Assembly (NCBI GenBank): GCA_032718475.1
Contig: JAUCBJ010007152.1
Span: 1-64,000 of the forward strand
DNA: 64,000 nucleotides
Direction of reading: 5' to 3'
Source of the DNA: Nemertoderma westbladi
Taxonomy: Eukaryota; Animalia; Xenacoelomorpha
Part shown: one piece after another, positions 38,581 through 62,855 of the stretch
Layout of the letters: the number at the start of each line of letters is the position of its first letter
Position numbering within the stretch: position 1 is the first letter of the stretch
Position numbers and translations under genes: made by a program
Notes under the pieces: generated by a model
What the model saw: only the letters and a program-made list of their open reading frames with translations
Told to the model about the DNA's origin: nothing
Database searches by the model: none

Positions 38581-38610
38581 GCACTAACGCCGGGTCAATG
38601 TGACCATATA

Positions 38611-39338
38611 AGTAGTATATGTTTGTATGACACAGCATCAAGGTCACCCATAGCCCATCATTACCATCCATTTCCAGTACTGCATCCAATCAGAAGCCAC
38701 CATTTCAACCTTTACCAGTGGTCGTTATTATTTCATCCAATCAGATGCCAGCATTTCATTCGTAACCATGGTAACTTCTCAAGTTCCCGCTTATTCCGCT
38801 AGAGGCGTTATTAGTCACCCAACGCTAGTACTGCATCCAATCACCAACCTTTATTTTACAGGTGTTCGGGTGTCTACACTTAGCATCAGGTAACTTCTAC
38901 TATTTTTCAAATCGCTATTTTTCAGCAACCAGTATTTTCATATTCACCAACCTTTATTTTACAGACGCTAGGGATGTCTACAGGTAACTTCTACTATTTT
39001 TCAAATCGCTATTTTTCACCAACCAGTATTTTCATATTCACCAACCTTTATTTTACAGACGCTAGAGGTGTCTACATGTAACTTCTACTATTTTTCAAAT
39101 CGCTATTTTTCACCAACCACTATTTTCATATTCACCAACCTTTATTTTACAGGTGCTACGAGTGTCTACAGGTAACTTCTACTATTTTTCACCAGTAACT
39201 AAATTTAATTTTGCAATTTTTTCAGATAACAAAATATTCAACCGGGTTCGAACTCGGGACTGCTATAACTCCTCACAACTCACTACTCACTCTTCCATCC
39301 AACCTCGAGAGAAAAAGGCGATAAATATCCGAGTTATA
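38611..39338 (+). repeat. Left TIR (728 bp, four ~94-bp internal units)
   Basis: Reverse complement of 56751-57289, plus two extra 94-bp units. Confidence 0.93.
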
Positions 39339-41660: not shown

Positions 41661-44600
41661 ATGGATAAACAATTGAAATGTCCATTTTGTCCTCTTCAAA
41701 TTTCTAAACGAAATTATTTAACTCACTTGAAATCACATTTTCAAGAATACAATTGTTTTAATTGTCAAGTGAAATGTTCACGTGAAGAAATTTGCAAATG
41801 ACATGAATCAACTACGGGTTGTAAAGAAATGAAGTTTTGCGTGTATGAAAAAACTTGCCCTACTTGTAATAAAGAGTATTTATATGAGAATTATTTACAT
41901 CATGACTGTCACCAACGTTATTATCATGTTAGACCACCACGATGGAACCAAAACAATACTGTCGCATCTAGAAAAAGACTGAAATCTGGTCAAGGTCCAT
42001 CAATTTTTAGCCTCGAACGAGCCACACACGATAACCGTTTAGAAATCTATGTTTACAATCTTCCGAATGATGAAGATTTTCCTGATATTCATTCATCGAT
42101 ACTAAAAATTCTTCCTCATATTAAAAAGTTATTATTAGGAAAACTTAGCGAAATGAATGTACTTAGACCCTGGCTAGGTGTGAATATACTCATGTATCGA
42201 TCACATTTTTCAGAGGGTGACCAAGAAGAAACTTTCTATTTTAGTTCTTCAGGTGGTGCAGTTAATACCGTAGATTCACATGAAAGTTTCTATATTTGGT
42301 TTGAGTATGTACTAGAAAAATTAATGCAAAAAATAGCCATGTTTAACACTCGTGGCTCAGGGTGGCGCGTTAAATCTTTATTAAGAGTGGAAATTAAAGT
42401 AGCTGAATCCAAGTCTAAGTCACTGGAATATAAAGGTCACGGTTATATGGAGTTACCTAAGGCTCTATCGAGTAAACAATGTGTTATAAATATACAAACG
42501 GCTGATAATGACTATTTCAAATGGGCTATTATAGCCACAAAATTTAGTAGCAAAGTGAAGATAAACAAAAACCGTACTTCGTCATACACAGATTACATGA
42601 ATCATTTGATTTTTGACAATGGGAACAAAGATTATCCAACAGAATGGCAGCTTGCAATTAAACTTTTTGAAAAACAGGATTCAGCATATATAATTAATTT
42701 ATTACTCTACGACAACAATCGAGTATCTATATTAAGACAGGCACCATTTAGTAAAATCACTCCAGATAAAGAGTTATTGAATATATTACTTGTAAAAAAT
42801 AAGAATAAATCAAAACAATCACATTATGTTTGCATAACTAACTTGAATCGCTTGATGAATACAAGAGGTAAGCATATTGGATGTAGGAAATATTGTGAAC
42901 GGTGTTTGACGCATTTTTACAGCAAGGATGTTCTAGAATTTCACCGTCTTACTTGTTATCAAGGAAAAAGTCAAGTTGAGAAGCTACCGTCTGAAAAAAG
43001 AACTCACATTAGCTTTAGAAATTTAGACAGAATATTACCAGCATTGTTTGTAATATATTTTGACATAGAATCTATTTTGGAGCCAGCTAGCAACAGTAAA
43101 TTTATTCAGAATCATATTCCATGCGCTGTAAGTTATTTAATTGTCCCTAGTAGCGAATTAATCAATCCACCAAAATTTTATTTGAAGACCTTTACAAAAA
43201 CAATTGACAACAACTGTATTCAAGACTTTTTAGACTCTGTATATAATGACATCACCCAATTATATAAGTGGTCAGAAACTAACACGAGAGAAAAGATGAT
43301 ACTTAATGATGTAGATAAGTTAAGTTTTTGGGAAGCTAAAACTTGCTTTTATTGCAATGTTTTATTTAAGGATAAATCTGAGAAAACAAACATCACGCAC
43401 ATATTACTGGTAACTATATAGCAGCAGCTTGTAACGCATGTAACCGCTCTTTATCGTTGAAACGACACATGTATATACTCGCTGCACACAACTGCAATCA
43501 CTACGATTTGCATTTTCTTTTACAAGTTGGGTTTACCAATAACAGATATTCCGATTGGTATATAAAGGTAATCCCTAAAAATTCTGAAAGGTATATTTCA
43601 CTAAGTATGCATATACCGGTGAAAGATCAAAAAACTAAAATTGAGCTATGTGTCTTAGACACATATCAATTTTTATCCTTTTCCCTAAGTACCCTTAAGT
43701 ATACTAAGTTATAGTTACTACTAAGTAGTATTAAGTATTAAGTTACTACTAAGTTATCCTTTTCCCTTTGTTGATTGTTCAACAAAGGATATAGATAGCG
43801 AGGATATAACATCAGTTCTACCAATTACTGAACAGCAAATGAAATATTTTTATCCGAAATTAAATAATGCAACAATTAAACGAAAAGGTATATTTCCCTA
43901 CGAGTATCTGACAGATTTAAATAAATTCAATGATTCGAAATTACCATCAATAGACAAATTTTATAGTAAATTAACACAAAATACCTGTACATCCAAGGAA
44001 TATAGTTTTGCCAACACATCATGGAGTCAGTTTGACTGTTCAAATCTCAAGGATTATCTTTTAGCATACTTAAAACTCGATGTTTGTCTCCTCGCTGATA
44101 TATTTGAGAACTTTAGGAGAGTATGTAGACAAAACTACGAATTAAAAGTAGTTTATTATTGCAGTATCGCAGCTTTCACTTATGATTGCACCCTGAAATA
44201 CAATAAATGTAAGTTAGCATTAATAAAAGATTACCAAACATATAGAGATTTTGAAGCATCTATTAGAGGAGGGGTTTCATTCTGTCGAAAGCATTACATA
44301 GAATCAAATATACCAGATACTGATAGTTATGATCCAAGCAAGGAAGAGTGTCATATTTTCAATATAGATTTTAATTCCTTGTATTCGGGTAATTTAAGTA
44401 AAAAGCTACCTGTTTCAGGTTTTGAACAACTCAACGTTACATATTTAGAGAATGCTGCTCCAGAAGAACTAATAAACTATTTAACAAATCTTGATACTGA
44501 AGGGGATATTGGGTTTTTCTTAATTTGTGATTTGAAATATCCCAAAGATATTCATGATCGTATATTAGAACTACCCTTAGCCCCAGAACATTTAAGTATA

Positions 44601-45746
44601 AATGAGACAATGCTTTCACCATATATGAAAGATCAATTTAATAATGTATGTAAACAAAGAGGTACTAATAGCAAGTATAAGATGTGTGCACCAAAACTTA
44701 TATTGACACAATTCGATAAAGAATTCTATCATGTAAATTTAAAACTGTTAAAATTTTATATAAAACAAGGTTTAATTGTTACTAAGCTCCATAAATTGTA
44801 TTCTTTCCATCAAGACTTTGTATTTAAACCCTATATAGATTTTAATATTAATCAAAGACGTTTAGCAAAAACTTATATTGAAACAGTTGTTGCAAAGCTG
44901 CTGAATAACTCGTTATTTGGTAAAACAATAGAGAGGATACGAGATCGCTGTAATTTCCGTATCGCTAATAGCAATGAGAAATGCAATCAATTGGTGAAAC
45001 GTATAAATCACGAAAATTTCATGATTTATAACAATTCCTTATCGGGATACTTATTAGTGAAAGACAGCGTGACACTAGATAAACCAGTCTATGTAGGTAG
45101 TACTGTCTTGGATTTAGCCAAACTTGATATGTATGAGCTGTACTACGATAAATTGCTACCTATTGAGAAAGAATTAAACTGCCGAATTGAAATTGTAGCA
45201 TCAGATACAGACTCATTAATTGGTTGTTATTATAATACATCGCAGAATAATTTCTTAATAGCATTAATTAAAAATAATATTCTAGATACCTCTAATTACC
45301 CCAAGGATCACCCTCTCTACAGCGATAAAAATAAATCCAGACTCTATTACTGTAAAGACGAGTTGTGCTCACAAGAGATTAAACAAGCAGTATTTTTACG
45401 TCCAAAGTTATATTCAATTTTGGAATGGAATAACAAAAATATTCGTAGAGCGAAAGGAATAACAAGAGCTGTCGTGGATAAAAAAATTTGCCACGAAGAT
45501 TATTTAAGAGCATATAAGGATAACGAAGAAATTTCCAAGGAAACGCATCAATTTCAGAGTCAATTACACAAAGTGTACACTGTAGCACGAGATAAGTTTG
45601 CTCTCAGCGCATTTGACGATAAACTTTATTGGGTTAATAAAAATCATTCACTTCCCTGGGGTCACTATCAAACAAAGGTTGTAAAACCAATTAAAAAAAA
45701 TATACCTATTTATCGGGAGCCAAACAATGAACTATCAGATAGTTAA
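41661..45746 (+). pseudogene. polB: Protein-primed family B DNA polymerase with N-terminal extension and endonuclease VII-like zinc motif; three lesions
   Basis: FDIES, HNCNHYDLHF, RKGIFPYEY, YLKLDV, DFNSLY, KLLNNSLFGK, SDTDS, KGI. Lesions: TGA at 41799, frameshift near 43390, insertion near 43697-43769. Confidence 0.93.
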
Positions 45747-46281
45747 TAAGAATGTAAGTTGCCAGCAAGTGTCAGCAATTAATTTGAAAGAATAAAAAAA
45801 TCAATTATCTGGTAAACATATACTCAAACCAAATCAGTTTATATATAAGATATTTGGTGCCACATTATTAATATTTAAAAATGGTCGTATTACATTATTA
45901 GGTAGTAAGTATAATTTCCAAAAAGTAAAAAAGCATATATTTGATAAAACAAGTATTAATTTGATTTTAATATCTGTTAATTTATGTACTTATATTTTTA
46001 GTATTAACTCTGTAGTCTATAGGTTATTGATAAACAATACCGGGTTTTATGTTGTCTTTGATAATGTACAACTTCAAGTTATATATGAACCTGAAATTTT
46101 TAATAATTGCAAAATAAGAATAAATAATACCGTAGTCATTTGCTGCTTTCATACCGGTAAATGTACTTTAATGTGTTCACCTAGCAAATTTCACATTTAT
46201 TACCCTATATTTAGTAAACTGGTTAATTATTTATTAATGTTTGGTGTTGTGACTTTAGGTGTAGAATATATTGGTAATTAG
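45727..46281 (+). pseudogene. TATA-binding-protein-like ORF (184 codons, one internal TAA at 45793)
   Basis: Two TBP-like repeats: YQIVN.NVS..INLK..ATLLIFKNGRITLLGSK and YEPEIF..KIR..VICCFHTGKCTL. Confidence 0.65.
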
Positions 46282-46419: not shown

Positions 46420-47325
46420 AGCTGCGAGGTTGACCGCATCCTAGCAGCGTGGCTGACTGCGCACACATCTGATTGTAACTGGTTCACGATATTGTATACA
46501 TTGGCTTAGTTTGTTACTGCAGGTACTGTTACATTAATACTGTAGTACCGGTACTGCAGTACAATGCTAATAGAAGGAAATCAGTATGTTCTATCTGACT
46601 ATACTGATACAACAACAGTGAAAGTACTGCATTACTGTATTGTTTGGGTAGGTGATCTAATCCCTGTATGTGAGACCCATGCGTGCAATCCAGGTCATGA
46701 CTGCAGTATGCTAATCAAGGTTCGGGTAGACTGCAGTATCCTTATAGGTGAAAAAAAAACAAATACTATTGCATCAGATTACTGCTGTACTGATACCGGT
46801 AGACCGCAACTACAGTGTTGGAAGAGTAAAACAATGTCGGTACTGATAAAGTGGATGACAGTGGTGGATAAGGGCTGCGAGGTTGACTGCATCCTAGCAG
46901 CATGGCTGACTGCGCACACATCTGATTGTAACTGGCTCACGATATTGTATACATTGGCTTAGTTTGTTACTGCAGGTACTGTTACATTAATACTGTAGTA
47001 TCGGTACTGCAGTACAATGCTAATAGAAGGAAATCAGTATGCTCTATCTGACTATACTGTTACAACAACAGTGAAAGTACTGCAGTACTGTATTGTTTGG
47101 CTAGGTGATCTAATCCTTACATGTGAGACCCATGCATGCAATCCAGGTCATGACTGCAGTATGCTAATCAAGGTTCGGGTAGACTGCAGTATCCTTATAG
47201 GTGAAAAAAAACAAATACTATTGCATCAGATTACTGCTGTACTGATACCGGTAGACCGCGACTACAGTGTTAGAAGAGTAAAACATTACCGGTACTGATA
47301 AAGTGGATGACAGTTATGGATAGGC
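46420..47325. repeat. 453-bp direct tandem duplication at the point where the two gene arms converge
   Basis: Near-identical blocks offset by 453 bp (e.g. 46564 and 47017). Confidence 0.9.
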
Positions 47326-47703: not shown

Positions 47704-48279
47704 CTACTGTACATCATTCACCGCAGTTATTTCTTTCTGTTTATCACCTGTCTCAGTTAATCGCTTCATATAATTACATACCCTCCAATCCTTTTCACTG
47801 AGCAGTAATTCAAGCAGCTATCACCATCTTTGTGAAAACTACATTTATCTTCTACAGTAGTTAATTTATCGTGGAAGGGGCATGGAGTTAAATAATTGTA
47901 ATATAGTCAAAATATTCCCAATTTGTTCATCGATTTTGGAGCGTAAACATCAAGTTGGGTATTTAATATTGCGGCTTTCATCAACCCGAATACATATATT
48001 ATATTTATTTTTTAATTGTCTCTTCATGTACTTTTTAAGGTCATCTTGCGAAATGTCACCGTAATCCCAAGGTAAATGCGATGTAATATCGCATAAATTG
48101 TTTACGTGGGCTTCATCTAATGCCGATAAGTTAATATCAGGAGGTCCTTTAATTAAAAACGTCTTTATATTAGTTTTACTGTATTTAGAATCAAATATAG
48201 CAAATTCTTTAAATACTACCGGATATTCCTTATTGTCTATCTTATAATATTGAAAATCAACAAAAATAATATTATCCAT
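47704..48279 (-). pseudogene. Maverick protein with DEDD-exonuclease-like N-terminus and Cys/His-rich C-terminus, disrupted
   Basis: IFVDFQYY..VFKEFAI..HLPWDYGD; after the break CPFH..CSFH..C..YC. Confidence 0.5.
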
Positions 48280-48335: not shown

Positions 48336-48776
48336 TTAGTTTATTTTATAATAATTAACAAGCCATTTATATAATATTATTTCATTTATTTCCACATTAT
48401 TTGTAAACGCTCTCATTGGATAGTTTGTGTGAATTTGATTTACCAAGTAATAAAGACAGTATAACCCGCATGTGGTCCTTCTAGGGTCTTGAAATTGCCT
48501 GCGAGTAGTACACCACCTTGCTGAATTTTTCTCAAGCCATTTTTCAATACATCTGTTTGGATATTTTGGACCAAACGAATTAAATAATTCAGCTTCATTA
48601 TCTCGTATATATATAGCCACCCAATGAACACCTGGTAGATGCGCTTTATCGGTATTTACTATTAACCCATAATCTCTTCGCTTATTATTATCTAATTTAG
48701 GTAATTTATTAGATGGAAATGCCCCCAAATAGTGACCACCCACTGGAAACATATCAAGGTCCTCTGTAGATAACAT
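48336..48776 (-). CDS. Adenain-like cysteine maturation protease
   Basis: VNTD...PGVHWVA...FNSFG...Q...TTCGLYC. Confidence 0.92.
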   Translation of the reverse strand: MLSTEDLDMFPVGGHYLGAFPSNKLPKLDNNKRRDYGLIVNTDKAHLPGVHWVAIYIRDNEAELFNSFGPKYPNRCIEKWLEKNSARWCTTRRQFQDPRRTTCGLYCLYYLVNQIHTNYPMRAFTNNVEINEIILYKWLVNYYKIN

Positions 48777-48778
48777 AC

Positions 48779-50038
48779 TTAATCGATATGTATTTCTTTC
48801 CTGCTATTTAAACTTAATGATTGATCATAAATATTAAAAACGATTACATTTATGGTCTCAACCAACGGTTCGGCAAATCTTAATTTTAATTGTCCGTTAG
48901 TATATATTGATGGTTGGGGATCCCTAACATAAGCGTCGGCAGTTAGGTCCCAGGATATGAGTGGGCAATTACCTAAGTAGGTTTCATGGTCTATATTATT
49001 ACCTCCATAACCGTTAATATATGTATTAATGTTCTTCATTAATTGAGTATACTCAAAAATGTATGTTCCATCTGTAAAATTAGGCTCGTATATTACACCA
49101 CCTACTGGAAGACCGTCTACAATCAGCTCCACGCGTCTAAGGTTAAAATGTTCAAATTTCAATGGGTTACTAGTTAATTCTCCCGAATATGAATTATTTG
49201 TTATAAAACCGATAATAACTAATTTGGGTTTTTTACCATCAAATATGTTTGTTTGGGTGTAATTTGTGGTTTGAGCGGGAATAGTAAATGTAGTAACCTC
49301 TTTTTTTTGAAATTGATATTCAATATCGTAGCTCTCTAAACCTTTTAGATGGCTGCTTTCTATTACTGGATTAACCTCCATTCTAGGGATTAGGATCTTT
49401 ACTTCATCTAATTCTAGCCGAAGATTTGTCACAGCGTTTGCGTTTGGAGTGATTTTAAAAATAAACGAAGTTGATACTTTTCTAAAATGCATTCTTAAAT
49501 CATACCCCGGTTGTATTATTTTACTTTCAGTATCAAAATCAATTGTCAATCCGCTTACAAATTGCATTTGTTTACTAAAGGCATTGCCAATAGGATGCGC
49601 ACCGGGATTAATTTCATTTCCGTGTTCGGATAAAGGCTGACGAAAGCCGCCTGCCCCCAGTAGCCCATTTTTTGTTTCGTATGTTGTAAATAGTAAATTG
49701 GATAAGTACGACTTGTAGAAATAATGGTTATTGCTATTTTCAACCTGCTTCTCATTAAGGTCTATTTTAATATCACTCCACATAGTTCCAGAAGGGTAAT
49801 TCAACATATAAATATGTGAGTTTTCAAGTCGTCTATCCCACTGTACAGTACATTTTGTAATTAATAATGCATCTTGCAGTTTCGTATAGAATTCATTGGA
49901 TCTCGGTACAAGAAACGTGACTTCCCTACACTCGCTTCTGAGATTAGATACGGGGTAAATTATTTCATAATGCTTTGCTTTAAATTCAGTCTGTATTGGC
50001 TGTGTAGAAAATAAATTTAATTCCTTAATAATTGACAT
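48779..50038 (-). CDS. Major capsid protein (double jelly-roll)
   Basis: 419 aa; LNLF..PIQT, P.LVIIGF...NPLKFEHFNL, WDLT, L.LRFAEPL...INVIV; located next to the protease. Confidence 0.88.
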   Translation of the reverse strand: MSIIKELNLFSTQPIQTEFKAKHYEIIYPVSNLRSECREVTFLVPRSNEFYTKLQDALLITKCTVQWDRRLENSHIYMLNYPSGTMWSDIKIDLNEKQVENSNNHYFYKSYLSNLLFTTYETKNGLLGAGGFRQPLSEHGNEINPGAHPIGNAFSKQMQFVSGLTIDFDTESKIIQPGYDLRMHFRKVSTSFIFKITPNANAVTNLRLELDEVKILIPRMEVNPVIESSHLKGLESYDIEYQFQKKEVTTFTIPAQTTNYTQTNIFDGKKPKLVIIGFITNNSYSGELTSNPLKFEHFNLRRVELIVDGLPVGGVIYEPNFTDGTYIFEYTQLMKNINTYINGYGGNNIDHETYLGNCPLISWDLTADAYVRDPQPSIYTNGQLKLRFAEPLVETINVIVFNIYDQSLSLNSRKEIHID

Positions 50039-50040
50039 TA

Positions 50041-50604
50041 TTAAAAAATACTTTTTTCGCAGTGTTTCAGTTTGCCTTTTTTTATTTTTCTATTTTTACT
50101 ACGACGATGATGTATGTTCATAGACATTGGTCTAGTCGGTCGCTTTAAATCTCTATAAACTTTTTCTACAACTGATCTTGTTGATGGTTTCATTTTATTT
50201 AATGCTTTATTAATAACCGTATTAGCCTGCTGATGTAAGACCCGCTTACCTTTTGGTATTACGTGTTGTCTCATAAATTTTGTGGTAAATGGTAAAACTT
50301 TTTGTAAAACTTTTTTTGCTAATGGCTTTCCAAATTTTTTCAATGTAGATAAAGCGTCTGTAAATATACCTTCTCCGTGTTGATTTGTCCGCATACCTCT
50401 GCGATAACGTTGAAATCGACATTGTTTTAAGTTTGGACCAAATGCACCAATTTGTTGACCGTAAGGGTCAATATATGATCCACCTCGAAAAACAGGAACT
50501 TGCGTCGAGCCTCTCGTACTTCTACCACCTTTAAAAACAGCAAGATTAGAGTCTGCACCACCATATTGAGGTTTACTGTATCTTTGAAATAAATCGGAAT
50601 CCAT
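50041..50604 (-). CDS. Basic core (pVII-like) protein with adenain-type cleavage sites
   Basis: K/R-rich, with QYGG, FKGG, FRGG and QHGEG motifs; lies between mCP and MCP. Confidence 0.65.
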   Translation of the reverse strand: MDSDLFQRYSKPQYGGADSNLAVFKGGRSTRGSTQVPVFRGGSYIDPYGQQIGAFGPNLKQCRFQRYRRGMRTNQHGEGIFTDALSTLKKFGKPLAKKVLQKVLPFTTKFMRQHVIPKGKRVLHQQANTVINKALNKMKPSTRSVVEKVYRDLKRPTRPMSMNIHHRRSKNRKIKKGKLKHCEKSIF

Positions 50605-50605
50605 T

Positions 50606-51449
50606 TTAATTTATTTTTTTAAAGTGTAAGGTAATAGAAGTTGTACCGTATTCAAAATTCAAATCTTTTCCTTCTTTGTCTGTTATTTCAATATGAATGT
50701 ATGTTATCTTATATGATTTTTTTACAGGGATATAATGAATTGTATCCTTGGCAAATTCTTTATTTATTATACTACCATATTTCACGTCATCAGGTAGCCA
50801 CGCGACGAAGTAAAGCTAAACCAAAATCATTAATATATTCATTTTCAATTATATTAGTAGTCACGTACATGTTCGACTTAGGTTCTGGAATAGAATTGGG
50901 TGGTTGAGGACATAAAAATACCATCTGGTAAGCTTTTTCTTCATTTCCGATAATCTTTATTAAATAACCCTTTATATTATTTTTCGTCTTCAAAATAATT
51001 TTAAAATTTGGATTTAAATTCGCACCGAGATTATTTTCAGTAATTCCAAAATAATAGGCTAATTGTTGACCTATAAATAACTCTCGTACAGTTTTCCCTA
51101 AAATAAATTGCAACCTATTTTGCTGAGTATTTTCAACTATTTGTAATTTATCTTTCAACGCCCCAGTGTTAAAATAATCTATAATGTCATTGATACTGTA
51201 GAACAAGCCGGATGGAAGTGTATCCTCAAAATTTTTTTTCCCTTTTTTTAATAAAATAACATTCTCTACATTGTTATACATGGACGGTAACGTGGCTAAG
51301 TAAAATATACTTTTTATACCTACCACCCAGTTTTCGTTTGGATTTATAGGTAAGGCACCATGGAAATTGATCTGATAATTACTACCGGTATTACAAGGAA
51401 AATCAATTGGACACAAGTTACTTGGTAGACTAACATAGAACTCATCCAT
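50606..51449 (-). pseudogene. Minor capsid (penton-like) protein 2, disrupted C-terminus
   Basis: FYVSLPSN..FP.N..SNY...WVVG; MYVTTNII...LLR; ends ITLHFKK. Confidence 0.8.
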
Positions 51450-52311
51450 CACCACCGCATATTAACTTAAATGTTATAACAGTGCGACCACCGTTGAAAT
51501 TAATTAATTCACCTTGGCTGTCACGTAAAGTAATTAAGATTGTTTTTAGTTTTTTATTCAACAACGGGTAATAGCAAATGCTCTCGTATTCGTGATTAAT
51601 ATATTTTCGATTTAATTGTGTTAAAGGACAGGTTCTTAAGAGCGGAGCTAAAGCGTCACCAACAAATGAGCTCTTAATAATATCTGTATATATGAAGATT
51701 GTATCTTTATTACGAGTAATATTCGTAGGATCTGGAAAATCTAAAATCCCAATTTCCGAAATTTTTGGTCCACTATAATTTAAAATTAATATCGGCTGTT
51801 CTATATTGCTTAATTCATCCACTGTAGTGGTACTGTATATATCCCAATTCGGAATACCTGGATGATTCTGATCCAATAACTGTTTTAAGCATAGAATTTG
51901 TATTAAATCACCGCGTAGACTTAATTGTATTTTTTTCAACTTTTTAGGAAATTTAAATTTAATTCTAGAATTATTTGTATTAAAAATGAATTCGAAATCT
52001 CTATATTACGCTTCAGAATTAAACAGTTTATTTATATCATCAATAATGACTTGAATAGAGCTATGCATACCAGGAAATAAACTGTATAATTTGGCATCTT
52101 TTGCATCTACCCCGATTGACAGTGAGATTTGAGTTTGCAAAGTAATATTACTGTATGTTGCTTGATATTGAATCTCGGCAAGTCCAATTTTAGCGTTTGA
52201 ACCAATATATAATTCTTCGGCTAAATCAACAGTAAACTCGCTAGGGTTATTATTGGGATATGTGTTTAATGAGCTATCTGAAACTAGAGTGATATATGTA
52301 TCTACAGCCAT
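51442..52311 (-). pseudogene. Minor capsid (penton-like) protein 1, one in-frame stop at 52006
   Basis: YITLVSDSS..YPNN..SEFTV.L...IGLAEIQY; IFIYTDII..SFVGD..APLLR; YYPL...I.LRDSQG. Confidence 0.85.
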
Positions 52312-52324
52312 TATTATTATTATT

Positions 52325-52750
52325 TAAGCTCTCTCTGCTTGACTCCATTGTATATACTGTACTGTATAATGTTAAACTATAGACATCTGTGACCACGTTC
52401 ATTGTTTCTACAGTATATGCGAGAGATCAATATTTAAAGCAAATGAACTATAGATATTAGACTTACAGCATAGTAATATCATTCGAGTTAATATTGATTA
52501 ATTACGATCATATGTGACCATTATTCGCTTAAGCTCTCTCTACTTGACTCCTTATACATACTGTATAATGTTAAATTATAGACATCTGTCACCGCGTTCA
52601 TTACCGCTTCTACAGTATATGCGAGGGATCAATATTTTACTGGCTTTATTTAAAGCGAATGAACTATAGATATTAAACTCTCAGTATAGTATAGTAATAT
52701 CATTCGAGTTAATATTGATTAATTACGGTCATATGTGACCATTATTCACG
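52325..52750. repeat. About 205-bp direct repeat x2 upstream of the structural gene block
   Basis: TTAAGCTCTCT...CATATGTGACCATTATTC starts at about 52325 and 52529. Confidence 0.85.
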
Positions 52751-52781
52751 CAATGAATTAATATACAGTATAAACCTAAAC

Positions 52782-53870
52782 TTATTGAATATGCTGTACC
52801 CACGACTGTTTTTTGGATCCAATGAATCGGACTAAATATTCTTTTTTCCCATTGCGCACACGTTCTTTAAGTTTGCCAATATTTTTGTCAATCGGAAGAT
52901 AAATATTACTACTCGGGTGGACCTTTTGGAGTTCGTATGAATAAAATGAACCATTTATTATAGCACCAGCGCTGTCCTTAATATCGAACATTACCACTGG
53001 TACTCTATCCAATCTGACCCGATGAATAATAAATAATTCACGTGTCCATTGTTCTCGATAGCCTTTAGCAAAAGCAGTACGCGCGATAGATAAACGTACT
53101 GTATCTCCAACTTGAAATTTTATTTTCTTGTGATTAATCTGTCTATATTTCCCATATAATATATTAATTAATTCAGTTTCATTAAATTTATTAACTTCAA
53201 TGGGAGTCATTTGTATAGTCCTATGAAATGACCTATTATAAGCAAAAATAAGCTTCGGTAAAATTTTTATCCAAACATTATTTCCCCGTTGTGTGAAAAT
53301 TTTGAACATCTTTGTTTTTAATGTTCTATTGAATCTCTCGACAATAGCCGCCTTATTCACAGAGTACATTATGTAATAACGTACACCAATAGTATCTAAA
53401 TATTTTCTTACAGATTTATTTAGAAACTCAGACCCTTGATCAGTCGCGATTCTGTTTGGTTTACCTTTCTGGAATATTTTTTGCAATATACTAATAATTT
53501 CAATACCTGTTTTTGTCTTCATACCATAGGCAAAAGCAAGCCGGCTAAAGGCATCAATACATGTTAATATATAGTTATAATTATTATTTTGTGATTTATA
53601 TTGCTGCATATCCACCAGATCTATCATATATATATCTTTTAACCCTCCCGTAAATATTTTAGATGTTGGATAATGATGTCTACGTGGTGCGTGAAGGGAG
53701 TATGTCTTTTGCCCGCTCAACCATTTCTGAGCTTGAGATGGTTTGATGTTTGCGGCTTTTGCTAATTTTGCGATACTTGCAAAACCTGCAGGCGATGAAG
53801 GATCTAAATAAATTCTTAACAGTTTTTTGTCTAAGCTTCGGCTTAAAATCGGTTTCATCTTGAGTGGCAT
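52782..53870 (-). CDS. Retroviral-like (RVE) integrase with chromodomain remnant
   Basis: IDLVDM, CIDAFSR, TDQGSEF, VERFNRTLK, F.KGY..WT.E.F, KEYLVRF.G..SWV. Confidence 0.93.
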   Translation of the reverse strand: MPLKMKPILSRSLDKKLLRIYLDPSSPAGFASIAKLAKAANIKPSQAQKWLSGQKTYSLHAPRRHHYPTSKIFTGGLKDIYMIDLVDMQQYKSQNNNYNYILTCIDAFSRLAFAYGMKTKTGIEIISILQKIFQKGKPNRIATDQGSEFLNKSVRKYLDTIGVRYYIMYSVNKAAIVERFNRTLKTKMFKIFTQRGNNVWIKILPKLIFAYNRSFHRTIQMTPIEVNKFNETELINILYGKYRQINHKKIKFQVGDTVRLSIARTAFAKGYREQWTRELFIIHRVRLDRVPVVMFDIKDSAGAIINGSFYSYELQKVHPSSNIYLPIDKNIGKLKERVRNGKKEYLVRFIGSKKQSWVQHIQ

Positions 53871-54091
53871 CTTTTCGACAACCGCAAGTAATATGTATAT
53901 TCAAATCTCTTATAAAGGGCATCACCGTAAAAACAGCTGAAATTTTTTTATTTTCTTTGAAGTTGATGTTTTGAAGGGTTTTCTTTTTGTAGTATTTACT
54001 CTAGGTATATCTTGAGGTTTTAAATCAGTAGCTAACGGTTTAGTCGATACTAAATATAATTTTCTAAATGTTACTCCCGTTTTAACCATTA

Positions 54092-54508: not shown

Positions 54509-55192
54509 TTAATTATTATTATTATTATTATTATTATTTTCGCTACGTTTATAGTCAATGTAATTTTTAATGTAACAATTATGATTACGAAATATATCCG
54601 ATCTAAATCTTAAATGTTCGGGTGTTTCCTGTCGTAAATCAATTAAGAAATGCGAAAATGGTTCAATAGTCGCATCTTGATAGGAATCTACTAAAAATTT
54701 GGTCTGCCCTGGTAACATCTGCTTCGCGAAATTTAAAACCGATAAACTGTCTCGCGGATTTTTCATTAATACTAGGGTATGGCTATTAATTGATCTTGTG
54801 CGGTTATGCTTCCTACCGTAAAACATGTTTTGCGTTATGAAACAAATAAATATATTGGAATGATGAGCAACCTTAGTAAACAATACAGTTAAAGCTGTAC
54901 TAGACTCAGTTTCTATTAATAAATCATCTATAATTAATAAATCTCGACTATTCACTAAACTATCTATATTTTCAGGCAAACCTTTGTAAAGGTGAGTAAT
55001 ACCAGGAATAGTCGGGGGATTGCTCCCGTAACAATACAATACTCGTAAGGGGTGTTCGTTGAAGCAGCCATTCTTGTGTTTAATTAAATTACCAACAAAT
55101 GTAGACTTTCCGGAACCAGACGGGCCAGAAATTATCATACTCGTTCCCATTTGAAAGTTTAAATTATATGGACCTGAATTAAAGTCAGCCAT
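54509..55192 (-). CDS. A32/FtsK-like genome packaging ATPase
   Basis: Walker A GPSGSGKS, Walker B LLIIDD, HH..I..ITQN, RT..IN, NPRD. Confidence 0.93.
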   Translation of the reverse strand: MADFNSGPYNLNFQMGTSMIISGPSGSGKSTFVGNLIKHKNGCFNEHPLRVLYCYGSNPPTIPGITHLYKGLPENIDSLVNSRDLLIIDDLLIETESSTALTVLFTKVAHHSNIFICFITQNMFYGRKHNRTRSINSHTLVLMKNPRDSLSVLNFAKQMLPGQTKFLVDSYQDATIEPFSHFLIDLRQETPEHLRFRSDIFRNHNCYIKNYIDYKRSENNNNNNNNN

Positions 55193-55342
55193 TTATTATT
55201 ATTATTAAGATATCAATAATACAATCACCATTACTATGTATATATGTAACAATTCACAAAAAACAGCATTTTACAACAAAAAGTATGTACAACTGTAGTA
55301 TTAGTATATTTATCATGGCAATCTTTCGTTCTATTTATTACC

Positions 55343-56044
55343 TTATTTGAAAAGATTGTGTAATCGTATACCAGCAATCAACAGACATTGTTTTCGATTT
55401 AAATAATGTCCACACCAAGTGAGATAACGGTGACATCGTATAAATTCGTTATACTTCTTAGTTTGACATTTACATTCTATACCACGTCCGTAGCATTTAG
55501 TACTGGAAATATGACTTAGAGTATGCTCCGTCAAAGTGCGAATTACTCTCATACACAAATCATTGCAAAGAATACCTTCATCAAGTTTCAAATAATACTT
55601 TTTTGGTTTTATACCTCTTGAAGATGATTCATCTTTATATGTCTTAAAGTAAATATCAAAACTACGTAAATTCTTATTTAATTTTACTGTGATATTTTTA
55701 TGTTCTTCATCAAACAACCAAGGTACCATAAAGCCGCCTTTTTTCACTATATATCGATAAAAAATATTCTGTGATATTGTAAATAACTCGTTAGGTTCGT
55801 TACTTTTTCCTGAAATGTAAATAGAATTCCGCAGCTCTTTCCAATAATATGGATTATATAACTTGTTTACTCTGCAAAGTGTCTGTACTCTACAAATTGG
55901 ACAAATTTTAGTATAATCATTAATTTCAACATGTTGATCAATACATGTCACGCAAGTTCCATGTTTATTAACACATATGTAACAATCAAGATGTTTTAAA
56001 TTAGAATAACAAATACTACAATTTGTGTTTATTAATATATCCAT
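55343..56044 (-). CDS. RING-finger protein (putative E3 ligase)
   Basis: CSIC...C.NKH..CVTC...CPICR at the N-terminus. Confidence 0.7.
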   Translation of the reverse strand: MDILINTNCSICYSNLKHLDCYICVNKHGTCVTCIDQHVEINDYTKICPICRVQTLCRVNKLYNPYYWKELRNSIYISGKSNEPNELFTISQNIFYRYIVKKGGFMVPWLFDEEHKNITVKLNKNLRSFDIYFKTYKDESSSRGIKPKKYYLKLDEGILCNDLCMRVIRTLTEHTLSHISSTKCYGRGIECKCQTKKYNEFIRCHRYLTWCGHYLNRKQCLLIAGIRLHNLFK

Positions 56045-56750
56045 TTTTCTTAAATAACCAAACCAAAATCGTTAAAATGTTGATAAAATATTTATAATAT
56101 AGCTGAAAGAGTCAAGATTCAACTTCATTGTCATCGGTTTCATCAGTGGTTACAAGGGTTTCTTTCGAAATAATAACAATAAACAAAGCCATAATTTCAT
56201 AAGCATTTTTACGATCTAATTTGATCTCAAACTTTTCACATTTATTGCTCGCTATATTACCACTATATTGAGTAATAACAATAAAGTTATCTGACATTGA
56301 TAAAATTGTGAATTTATCTAAATCATCTTCTTCTTTGTAATCTAAAAGGTAATTAGTAGAATCTACCTCACCGAAAATATCAATAGATCATAGTTCTTTT
56401 CTTGCTTGTTCAGAAAATGTCTATTTTAAAATTAGGTTGTGAAGGACAATAAATAGTGTTACCAATAACAATACAAGTAAGATTATCTACAGTATTAAAT
56501 GTATGTCTTATTACAGGCGCAGGTGTATCAGAAGACATTATTATTATTATTATTATTATTTTATGTAATAACAATTAAATAACAGCGACAAGACAGATAA
56601 ATAAATATTAATGATATTTTTTTCTATTCTATTCATATATTTATATAGATCATGTTATATATACAACCAATCAACTAAGAACACGTGTCACATGTAACCA
56701 ATAGAAAGTAAATAATAACAGTAAATGAAGCAAAATAGGTCAGGCTACAG

Positions 56751-57289
56751 TATAACTCGGATATTTATCGCCTTTTTCTCTCGAGGTTGGATGGAAGAGT
56801 GAGTGGTGAGTTGTGAGGAGTTATAACGGTCCCGAGTTCGAACCCGGTTGAATATTTTGTTATCTGAAAAATTGCAAAATTAAATTTAGTTACTGGTGAA
56901 AAATAGTAGAGGTTACCTGTAGACACTCGTAGCACCTGTAAAATAAAGGTTGGTGAATATGAAAATACTGGTTGGTGAAAAATAGCGATTTGAAAAATAG
57001 TAGAAGTTACCTGATGCTAAGTGTAGACACCCGAACACCTGTAAAATAAAGGTTGGTGATTGGATGCAGTACTAGCATTGGGTGACTAATAACGCCTCTA
57101 GCGGAATAAGCGGGAACTTGAGAAGTTATCATGGTTACGAATGAAATGCTGGCATCTGATTGGATGAAATAATAACGACCACTGGTAAAGGTTGAAATGG
57201 TGGCTTCTGATTGGATGCAGTACTAGAAATGGATGGTAATGATGGGCTATGGGTGACCTTGATGCCGTGTCATACAAACATATACTACT
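56751..57289 (-). repeat. Right TIR (539 bp)
   Basis: Reverse complement of the left TIR; ends ACTACT. Confidence 0.93.
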
Positions 57290-59879
57290 CATATATGCAA
57301 TAATGCCGGGTCAATGGGACCAATAATAGTACATAATACGTACTATCGTTGGCACTGAGGGCGCCACGTGACGAGTTGAGCGGGATATGTAGGCGTGGTA
57401 GGATAAATAGTGTAGGCCGCACAAACTAGACTACTATAGCGCATAGCCCAGAGTGCAGACTTAGAGTATTGTTGCAGACCCAGAAAGCTGTCTGGTGGAA
57501 AGTTTGCATAACAATAGGAAAATTGTACTGTAGCTAGTAAACATACAATGAGTAGTGATGAATTACTTATGAAGTAATTAACTGATGGGGTGCTACTTAA
57601 TAAGTAGCAAAGATGTATAGATAAATAATTACAGCAAGGTGAAGAAATCGTATTAACTGAAAATTAAAAATTCTAGAAACATAATTAAAAAGTAATGGAC
57701 AAAATTGCGAAAGTAGGAAAAAATTGATACGTAACTCAAAAATTAATTGTAAAAAGGGAGATAAAAGTAGATAAAAGGTAAGCCATCGCTGATTTAATGC
57801 TGATTGAAACTGAAATTAGTTATCTCTTGCCCTACTGAGCCTTTGCAAGGCACCACCAGTTCGGTGAGAGAGAGAAATCGGGATGGCGGAGAAGTTAGTC
57901 AAGATGTGGAAGTCGGAAAAGAGTGAGAGTGAGCTATTAGTCGATTTCATGCGGAGACATCTGGAGAATAAGACGAGGAATTATTACAATCGACTCCCTA
58001 AGAGTCAGAAAGCATATGTGTTACAAGATCAGTACCGAGGTATGCACGAACACGATTAGTTCGAACCTACGGAACACCATCATTGGATGATGCGATTGAC
58101 AAACATCTTTGTTATGTCATAAAGGGGGAGGAGAGTTCCTTTGGGATTCCAAGGTATGAGAGGGAACCAGCTATGAAGGAATGGACGAAGTTTGTCGAAT
58201 CGGTAGATGGTTTACATGGTTTTGGGTAACGAGGGGACTGTAGAGGATGACGACGAGATGAGCATGGGGTCCAAGGGGTCGGGTAGAACTATATTGCTGC
58301 ATCTAGCGGCACCAAACGGAGATATTTTTCTGTTCGACCTGGGGACCTATGGAAAAAAGATGGACAAAGCTGAACCGTTTACCGGATGCGGTGCAGAAAC
58401 ACTGATTCCTCTGATTGACTGTTTTCTCTTGCAAGCCAGTTGCCAAAGAATTAGATTACTGATCTCAGATCCTGACACCCATCTATGATGCGTTATGCCT
58501 GTAAGGTGGTGCTGGATTTTGGCAATTCTCGGTCTTGACCAAGATTGTTGCAAGATGCCTAGTTTGTTGTTATTGAGCCTTGTTAAGTTTATGCGATGCA
58601 CCTTGTGCAGCATCCTGATGTGCGGTATGTAATTTATTGTTGGTTCACCATCAAGAATTTTGGTGTGTCATGCAGTCGAAGTGAACACATACCATATTCT
58701 AAACATTAACCATGCCAAGTTGTCTCCTGTTGGTTGCCTGCTGTCAGTTGTCGGTTTACTGATGTCGGCTGTCTGCTGTCAGTTCTCTGCTGTTTGTTGT
58801 CGGTTTTCTGCAACTGTCGGTTCCCAGTTCCAAAAGGTGGTTATTATTTAATATATAATGATACTAAAATTGTTTCTTCCTTTGTTTAGTAAGAATCAAT
58901 AAGATGGGATAAAATCGACACCAGTCTACGCCGCTTTCATTGACTTCAGGAAAGCTTTGATTCTTTGTCTGTATGTTTGTCTGTCTGTGTGTGTTATCTT
59001 ATTTTATCTATTACATAATAAAGAAAATAAACTACTGAGTCAGCAAGTTTGCTACCGGCGATTTTCTTGGTCGTTGAATTTGTTTTATGATGCCAGTTGT
59101 AATGCTTGACAGAATCTACGGTCTGTCTGTCTGTATGTATGTATGTATGTATGTATGTCTGACTGTCTGTCTGATTGACGTACAGATATACAGTACAGGC
59201 CACCAGAAAAAGCAGATTTCATCCAATGTGATCACATGTGAACACATTTGTTCAAGTCATCTGATTGGCAGGTTATGGCGAGTTATCTAGCTAACTTGCT
59301 GGGACCGACAAAGGCTTAGTGTGCGGTGCGCCTGTATGTCTGATATCAGGTAGATGAGAGAGCCCACAGGACGTAACATTGCGGACATGGGCTGTATTGG
59401 TAGAGAGAGAACTACATACAAGACCACATGGAGGTTCATGGAGTGTATGGGAGTGGATGGGTATATGGATGGACGAGCCTAGACCATTGAATAATTAATT
59501 TAGTGCAGGGAGATGTCGCGCCATTAGTCTGACACCGAGAGGGCATAGAGAAACACCAGAAGATGCCTTAACATCACTAACTATAGGCGTGCTTACTTGA
59601 GACACTATAAACCGCACACTATAAAGGTAAACAAAATCCTTATCGCATTTCCAGCTGCAGTGAGTGACAGTTCGCGGCAAACTACAGAGAGTTTCCAGAT
59701 TACTAAGCGTTTCAAAAGTATTCAATTGTATCCTTTGGCGAAAAAATTTCGGTTGTTGCCAATTCAATTATGTTCAATTATGTTCAATTGTCCCGTTCAA
59801 CAACATTACATTACACTGGTACACATTTGATAAAATGTGTTCACAATTGTACAAATCTGCGTTTTCTGGTGGCCTGTAC

Positions 59880-61906: not shown

Positions 61907-62855
61907 GGTAGCACAAACTTAGTTCCAATCGCACATTTTCAAAGGCAAACTTAATTCCAATTGAAACGAATTTAGTTCCAAAATTAATTTTACAAATCGA
62001 ACTTAGTTCCAATCGAGGCGAACTTAGTTTCAATCCCAGAATATAAAAACGAACTTAGTTCCAATGGATGCGAATTTAGTTCCAATGGAAGCGAATTTAG
62101 TTCCAATGGAAGCGAATTTAGTTCGACTGGAAGCGAATTTAGTTCCAATGGAAGCGAATTTAGTTCCAATGGAAGCGAATTTAGTTCCAATGGAAGCGAA
62201 TTTAGTTCCAATGGGTACGAACTTAGTTTCAAAGTTTTAATCGTGGGGATAGCCACGTAGTAGGCGAAGCCTATTGCGTATTGTCAATATTTGGGGTGGG
62301 TCAGGGTCAACAATAATTGTAAATAATTGTAAAACCATTCAGTCATTTTTAAAAAACGAATTATTATTAAATGTATAATTACACATTTTGAATTATATAT
62401 TAATGACGAGTGTACTGATACTGACTGACTGAGTCTGTAGTATTATTTGGGTTAGGAGGTTGGGCGTAGTTTGGGTTATGAGCTTGGGCGTTGTTTGGGA
62501 TAAGATTGTTTTCGTTAGGAGGTTGGGCGTTTTGGGTTAGTTATTTACAATTATTGTTTAACCAGCCTCTTAATAGTGTCATTAAACAGATTCTTCGCCA
62601 ACTACGTGGCTCGCCCCTTTGGAACTAAATTCGCTTCCATTGGAACTAAATTCACATCCATTGGAGCTAAATTCGCATCCATTGGAACTAAATTCGCATA
62701 CATTTGAACTAAATTCGTTTGTTTTCGTTTTTCTCTAGTTATTGGAACTAAGTTCGCCTAAATTGGAACTAAATTCGCCAAAATTGGAACTAAATTCGTT
62801 TCCATTGGAACTAAATTCGCATGAGGCTTATATTGGAACTAAGTACGGGGAATCC
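61907..62855. mobile_element. Foldback MITE whose arms are 21-bp tandem repeats
   Basis: GCGAATTTAGTTCCAATGGAA arrays in opposite orientations, GG...CC ends, flanking direct repeat (C)GAGGTCCC at 61898-61906 and 62855-62863. Confidence 0.8.

Follow-up and report, generated by a model that had tools for sequence, protein, structure and literature searches.

A highly divergent TATA-binding protein family gene in a Maverick element of Nemertoderma westbladi and its possible role in promoter choice

Why should a mobile element of 18.7 kb, in which a Pfam scan of 19 proteins finds no RNA polymerase, carry a gene resembling the TATA-binding protein (TBP)? The question is raised by an open reading frame (ORF) in a 64,000-nucleotide stretch of DNA from Nemertoderma westbladi, referred to here as the window. 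A preliminary description of the sequence had proposed that a Maverick carries a TBP-like gene coupled to its protein-primed DNA polymerase B (pPolB), and that the product is a promoter factor or a decoy. Viral TBP mimics are already known from large DNA viruses and from herpesviruses. In the accessible parts of the open-access literature on Polintons/Mavericks no study of a Maverick TBP was found, and the paper of Starrett et al. (PMC8502044) and its preprint alone label one such gene. New here are the polB-clade boundary of the gene, the contrast with 31 TBP-negative loci, and a family member that is very divergent and under selection.

The element and its open reading frame

Long terminal inverted repeats (TIRs) starting with AG and a 6-bp target site duplication (TSD) are a feature of Mavericks/Polintons. 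The ORF lies inside a complete element of this kind (Table 1): its TIRs match at 97%, its outermost bases are AGTAGT and ACTACT, and the TSD CATATA lies on both sides. Both pPolB and a retroviral-type integrase are present. The set of ATPase, C5 protease and capsid genes is represented as well: the protease is over the Pfam cut-off, the ATPase match is weak, and the major capsid gene is recognized through Atlas matches to several clusters, partly labelled as DJR or capsid families. On the plus strand, polB is followed by the TBP-like ORF; on the minus strand are the RING, ATPase, integrase, two putative minor-capsid, major capsid and C5 protease genes. The basic-protein gene presumably encodes a membrane protein or part of the virion core. 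The element is flanked by BEL/Pao, gypsy-type, LINE and THAP/P-element sequences, a set suggestive of an animal host. The window copy is decaying, since polB is broken by a stop at 41799 and by frame changes near 43382–43421 and 43714–43725, and the upstream minor-capsid-like gene has an in-frame stop at 52006–52008.

Table 1. Features of the Maverick element in the window (positions are those of the window)
Feature	Position	Strand	Remark
Left TSD (CATATA)	38605..38610	.	identical 6 bases at 57290-57295
Left TIR, begins AGTAGT, contains extra 94-bp tandem units	38611..39338	.	97% match to right arm
Protein-primed DNA polymerase B, broken	41661..45746	+	ORF pieces; PF03175 E=0.0022 on one; homologs with PF03175
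TBP-like gene, 184 codons, predicted two-repeat saddle, without N-terminal extension	45727..46281	+	Pfam TBP match, predicted fold, purifying selection among copies
Premature stop TAA, codon 23	45793..45795	+	X1-X5 contigs read site otherwise
Adenovirus-type (C5) cysteine protease	48336..48776	-	PF00770 E=4.9e-5, over cut-off
Candidate word ANATACAT, 19 nt upstream of protease ATG	48788..48795	-	marginal
Likely double-jelly-roll major capsid protein	48779..50038	-	Atlas matches 0.95-0.98; homolog in L041
Candidate word ANATACAT, 79 nt upstream of capsid ATG	50110..50117	-	marginal
Basic protein with amphipathic segment	50041..50604	-	weak Pfam match under cut-off
Candidate word ANATACAT, 100 nt upstream of 50604 ATG	50697..50704	-	marginal
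Two putative minor-capsid-like genes	50790..52311	-	homologs in L040, L041, L043
Retroviral-type integrase	52782..53870	-	PF00665 E=1.3e-10
Candidate word ANATACAT, 30 nt upstream of integrase ATG	53893..53900	-	marginal
Packaging ATPase (P-loop, A32-like)	54509..55192	-	weak Pox_A32 and AAA matches; homologs in relatives
Candidate word ANATACAT, 51 nt upstream of ATPase ATG	55236..55243	-	marginal, 19/300 nulls
RING-finger gene near right TIR	55343-56044	-	PF13639 E=0.0044, under cut-off
Right TIR, final bases ACTACT	56751..57289	.	match to left arm
Right TSD (CATATA)	57290..57295	.	identical to left TSD

Several other features were seen in the window. A 453-bp direct duplication (96%) lies just 3' of the TBP gene at 46421–47322, each unit with one Cys-rich ORF (46564, 47017) that matches no Pfam family. 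A right-end ORF (56112–56538, minus strand), whose frame seems to be interrupted between its ATG (56538) and position 56387, has a weak match to Dip (gp37; E=0.055), a protein of PC4-like fold. Runs of AAT triplets stand directly 5' of the ATG of the ATPase gene (55192–55210), the first minor-capsid gene (52311–52330) and the 56538 ORF (56538–56565), all on the minus strand; another such run is found at the 3' end of the ATPase gene, and they are possibly a leader feature. Upstream of the first minor-capsid gene, in 52320–52780, a stretch of about 170 nt is internally duplicated, and every unit has TATA-like words; at 61940–62850 a 21-bp unit forms inverted arrays, separated by about 400 nt, that resemble foldback/MITE ends.

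When translated with X at codon 23, the ORF gives 184 residues and ends at the TAG at 46279–46281. As had been described, its ATG overlaps the end of polB, by 20 nt (the polB stop is at 45744–45746), and both of the TBP repeat motifs quoted at that time are found in it. The stop-to-stop part that follows the premature stop comprises 161 of the 184 codons, rather than only the second half as previously stated.

Sister copies of the ORF were collected as contigs from five public runs, X1–X5 (four studies and two organism labels, with X1 and X2 from one sample). The stop at codon 23 is private to the window copy, or is an assembly error, because contigs of all five runs read the site otherwise. 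They do so at 99.9% of summed contig depth, which is not treated as copy number, in X1 (13 contigs), and at 100% in X2, X3, X4 and X5 (9, 6, 2 and 1 contigs, respectively). The frame is under purifying selection among the sister copies. Of the 41 best-supported differences listed within the ORF (further rows in the two comparisons number 28 and 107), 23 are synonymous against 9.5 expected (1/20,000 randomisations), 27 are at third codon positions and none creates a stop; in the second half of the ORF, 13 of the 18 listed differences are synonymous. One listed variant alters the codon of E121, and in-frame deletions of 9 nt are found among the contigs near the C-terminus. Some other copies are broken too, since at least one low-depth X1 contig has a 10-nt gap within the ORF.

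An X4 contig covers positions 45708–46071, and in an X5 contig the ORF follows the end of polB across a different junction; the polB link is therefore kept in divergent sister copies. In X4 and X5 contigs, 123 other letters take the place of 102 nt at 45676–45779 (polB end and TBP start); they represent a divergent subfamily in which the junction differs.

These observations bear on the simplest alternative, that the ORF is a passenger: a piece of host TBP, captured by the element and now decaying without function. The stop in the window copy, the breaks in polB and in one minor-capsid gene, and a very long branch in the TBP tree (4.27) would all agree with it. However, the stop is private to this copy, the sister copies show the synonymous excess, and the GC3 of the ORF (0.21) is near that of the element's genes (0.25–0.29) and unlike that of the flanking retroelements (0.36–0.42); in addition, the family of 565 matches described below groups away from archaeal and canonical-type TBPs. 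The passenger reading, to which we give hardly any credence, is largely refuted for the family, but it still holds for the window's single copy.

Family membership, predicted fold and functional residues

The ORF is a highly divergent TBP-family gene. Pfam PF00352 matches it in two stretches with E=2.7e-9 and 37.2 bits, against a curated cut-off of 22.9. It scores 51.8 bits with a profile of 120 relatives from which the window protein was left out (best of 500 shuffles, 10.7) and 20.6 bits with a profile of 76 archaeal TBPs (shuffles' best, 8.5). Single-sequence searches with the window protein gave no match among 5.8 billion proteins and none among 1.84 billion representatives. PrfA, which came first in a phmmer search of the PDB (E=0.015; TBP, 0.064), was rejected after the profile and fold searches.

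When folded together with 123 relatives, the protein is predicted to adopt the pseudo-symmetric saddle of TBP (pLDDT 81.9, pTM 0.74); a single-sequence fold was poor (pLDDT 42) and was set aside. A Foldseek search with the model gave 44 matches at E <=0.001, with TBP chains at the head throughout the rows listed. VIA-align gave Z scores of 10.6–13.6 to 38 TBP entries and 6.9 to the first non-TBP entry, the best match being 1mp9_A (Z 13.6, rmsd 5.5, 175 residues aligned).

Residues were placed by alignment to canonical-type and archaeal TBPs, with the yeast numbers given in Table 1 of PMC12529657. N69, L114, F116, V161, F190 and F207 are kept in the window protein. Three of the four DNA-kinking phenylalanines (F116, F190 and F207) are thus present, where a canonical TATA reader has four; the F99 position is occupied by P35, in a shortened first loop or stirrup, and is a proline in 97% of the 120 relatives. 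Basic positions of canonical TBPs, which we take to touch the DNA backbone, correspond in the alignment to K34, K41, R54, R131 and K145. Because three of the four phenylalanines and the basic backbone residues are kept, the protein is predicted to have retained DNA binding and kinking.

The positions that read the bases (N69, V71, V122, T124, N159, V161, L205, V213 and T215) are, in contrast, mostly altered, with only N69 and V161 kept. V71 is replaced by Asn (in the family, Asn in 63% and His in 22%), V122 by Thr, T124 by Leu, N159 by Ser, L205 by Cys, V213 by Thr and T215 by Met. Two of the related Maverick loci described below, L040 and L041, differ from the window and from one another at several of these positions. 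The window protein also departs from its own family in having Asn at P191 (92% Pro in the family) and Cys at the glycine after T215 (95% Gly). Since base-reading positions are substituted, the DNA specificity is predicted to have changed. The protein belongs to the TBP family yet departs on two counts from a canonical TATA reader.

Sequence comparison places the acidic TFIIB stirrup of canonical TBP in the window protein: glutamates E121 and E123, in the motif YEPEIF, are each conserved in 99% of the 120 relatives. As these glutamates are kept, the protein would be expected to use TFIIB. In the accessible text of PMC12529657 the acidic stirrup residues are described as critical for TFIIB and as absent from herpesvirus ORF24; they are written there as E184 and E188, which by the paper's own F190 anchor would be 186 and 188.

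A protein that keeps its TFIIB stirrup as its best-kept surface might also act as a decoy or competitor, tying up host TFIIB or sitting on host TATA boxes and so damping host transcription, with no promoter of its own. The loss of F99, which could weaken DNA kinking, would suit such a decoy; the DNA-facing residues, however, are not drifting but have been swapped for specific, lineage-conserved polar ones.

Distribution among related Mavericks and candidate promoter words

Relatives of the element were reached solely through polB-anchored loci (n=114). TBP genes were found in five of these (L038, L040, L041, L043 and L044, the last two being near-copies), all within the window's polB clade, and the 34 loci of at least 8 kb outside that clade are without a TBP gene. 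The polB tree has 53 rows, comprising all TBP-bearing loci, the loci of at least 8 kb and the 18 best-scoring ones, with an aligned part of at least 250 residues. It places six TBP-bearing and 34 TBP-negative (at least 8 kb) rows on opposite sides of one branch with an SH-aLRT of 100; the TBP side includes 11 further short contigs whose TBP state is not callable, and many of the negative loci are incomplete. The polB and TBP trees agree on the split of L038/L040 from L041/L043, as far as the TBP tree resolves. The TBP gene is inherited within one polB clade of Mavericks. The proposal that a Maverick carries a TBP-like gene, which the preliminary description had tied to a TBP-fold match and to conservation in related Mavericks, is confirmed by the PF00352 profile, by Foldseek and VIA-align on the predicted model, and by the five polB-related loci. 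A Pfam search that covered eight of 34 loci had no positive. No confirmed locus came from scanning viral contigs with the capsid, polB or TBP alignment, and a plasmid search gave chance matches only.

An alignment of the TBP-bearing loci retrieved 565 proteins, which come without genomic context; the 120 listed are mostly of 150–200 residues, and all have PF00352. In a TBP tree of 66 rows, none of them a cellular eukaryote TBP, five Maverick-locus and 37 family sequences are separated from 22 archaeal and two canonical-type viral-contig TBPs (100/98). This separation speaks against an adapter for a helper giant virus, a role modelled on virophage promoters in which the protein would cooperate with the RNA polymerase and a TFIIB-like factor supplied by a large DNA virus infecting the same cell. 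TBP folds are indeed common in large DNA viruses, and virophages are described, in the accessible literature, as dependent on helper transcription. No helper is evident, however, the Maverick-locus TBPs do not group with the two canonical-type viral-contig TBPs in the tree, and the element's gene set is that of integrating animal Mavericks, so that we regard the adapter as very unlikely.

In all five TBP-bearing relatives the TBP gene follows polB on the same strand, about 1.0–5.5 kb downstream, with one to four genes between; L035, the nearest polB relative, has no TBP within the 2.7 kb after polB. The overlap of TBP and polB is local to the window and is not a family trait. The term "coupled to pPolB", used in the first account of the locus, is apt for the overlap in the window but not for the relatives. 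A replication or packaging factor, whose saddle bends TIR DNA and aids protein-primed initiation by polB, would explain the polB link, seen as the overlap in the window, as the downstream, same-strand position in all five relatives, and as the tracking of the polB tree by the TBP gene. But adjacency to polB is not kept, a conserved TFIIB stirrup would be needless, and none of the 11 sites of the window's candidate word ANATACAT (see below) is inside a TIR; such a role seems distinctly improbable.

Other small genes were noted in the relatives. The gene directly 5' of TBP in L040 (L040:13724-14125) matches a parvovirus-type phospholipase A2 (E=8.3e-11), and a look-alike occupies the same place before TBP in L038 (5213–5656). 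KilA-N genes are found in L040 (11675–12640) and L036 (4909–5661). L041, L043 and L044 have in common a small gene near TBP that is PC4-like by eye. Small genes with a hydrophobic-D-x-E/Q start, DEDD-exonuclease-like by eye, occur in the window (47950–48279, minus strand) and at L040:11223-11687, L041:8317-8940 and L043:2795-3361, directly 3' of TBP in L041 and L043; they are without Pfam support, and a profile of the three relatives' copies missed the window ORF.

Upstream regions were searched for shared exact words by one automatic pipeline over 33 loci and the window, with 150 nulls for comparison. In L040, CATAAAC stands upstream of seven of 12 genes (0/150 nulls) and in L041, TTAAGC upstream of seven of 14 genes (1/150 nulls). 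These words precede the ATPase, integrase and capsid-block genes and are absent before TBP and polB; by eye, L043 and L044 have the word of L041 before one gene. Among the 31 TBP-negative loci, two reach 1/150 and four reach 8/150 or fewer, with pure A/T words in all. The link between TBP and word comes from L040 and L041, which, of the loci of at least 12 kb, are at the same time the two nearest to the window in polB; clade and TBP are therefore confounded in it.

The window itself has no significant exact word (50/150 nulls; 26–50/100 in a second run), and the relatives' words are not found upstream of its genes, save TATAAAC before one gene. Its best degenerate word, ANATACAT, is marginal: it was chosen after the fact, and 18–19 of 300 nulls are as good (p ~0.06) in the best of several settings, the others being worse. 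Five of its 11 sites in the element stand 19–100 nt before the ATPase, integrase, 50604, capsid and protease genes (Table 1). As a promoter word of the window element, ANATACAT is a lead only.

For the decoy discussed above, the lack of a clear word in the window is a point in favour, and the specific upstream word in two TBP-bearing relatives is a point against; we consider a decoy unlikely. Where the preliminary description had left a promoter factor and a decoy side by side, a promoter-specificity factor is now favoured, on the relatives' evidence only.

Proposed role and comparison with known systems

The role that we think somewhat probable is that of a late-promoter specificity factor for host Pol II, with a private TATA-like word and recruitment of host TFIIB and RNA polymerase II. 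The TBP-like protein of intact copies would be made together with polB; its rewired saddle would bind a lineage-specific TATA-like word before the capsid, packaging and integrase genes, and the word-bound protein would then hand host TFIIB and Pol II to these virion genes, which are called late by analogy with herpesviruses. The scheme would be a one-protein version of herpesvirus late transcription. More tentatively, each sub-lineage may pair its own TBP variant with its own word, CATAAAC in L040, TTAAGC in L041 and perhaps ANATACAT in the window.

Such a factor would make the switching of Maverick capsid genes, and with it a real virus cycle, testable via one small protein and a site of 6–8 bases, and natural altered-specificity TBPs would reveal the residues that set TATA recognition. 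If the pairing by sub-lineage is true, it would amount to a series of orthogonal TBP-promoter pairs made by nature, and would be direct evidence of a timed, virus-like gene programme in Mavericks.

Cellular TBP (PF00352; yeast 1ytb, human 1cdw, Sulfolobus 1mp9) has the same two-repeat saddle of about 180 residues, predicted for the Maverick protein, which keeps N69, F116, F190, F207, the YEPExF stirrup and the K/R backbone positions. In contrast, identity is only about 20%, F99 is a proline and the first stirrup is shortened, the V71, V122, T124, N159, L205 and T215 positions are changed, and the Maverick protein is without the N-terminal tail and is carried by a mobile element. The TBPs of large nucleocytoplasmic DNA viruses (in BFVD: Heterosigma akashiwo virus, Marseillevirus, Mimiviridae) share a virus-encoded TBP fold, but their identity to the Maverick protein is 10–17%, and these viruses mostly encode their own RNA polymerase. 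A further case is that of a MELD virus with an adintovirus-like PolB (Starrett et al. 2021, PMC8502044), a Polinton-related element with a TBP-labelled gene. The label sits in the legend of Fig. 5; the accessible text of that paper holds no analysis, distribution or promoter claim for it, and the accessible part of its supplementary file has no match to TBP or TATA.

A functional parallel is the herpesvirus TBP mimic exemplified by KSHV ORF24, and the comparison is one of working principle only. According to PMC12529657, mimics of this type in beta- and gammaherpesviruses are proposed to read a non-canonical TATA word (the TATT late promoter) for host Pol II. ORF24 and the Maverick protein have in common a TBP fold, predicted for the latter, whose DNA face carries polar substitutions. 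The paper describes ORF24 as a multidomain protein of 752 residues in which all four phenylalanines are kept and the TFIIB glutamates are missing, and which works with viral partners such as ORF34. The multidomain plan of ORF24, BcRF1 and UL87, with a Pol II-binding N-terminal domain and loss of the glutamates, is not that of the Maverick protein, which at 184 residues is a bare core with the glutamates kept, without F99 and with no known partner. If sub-lineages do pair TBP and word, a possibility that we put forward with caution, these proteins would be the smallest late-transcription switch known in viruses: a bare TBP of 165–190 residues, with the TFIIB handle kept and the DNA face rewired.
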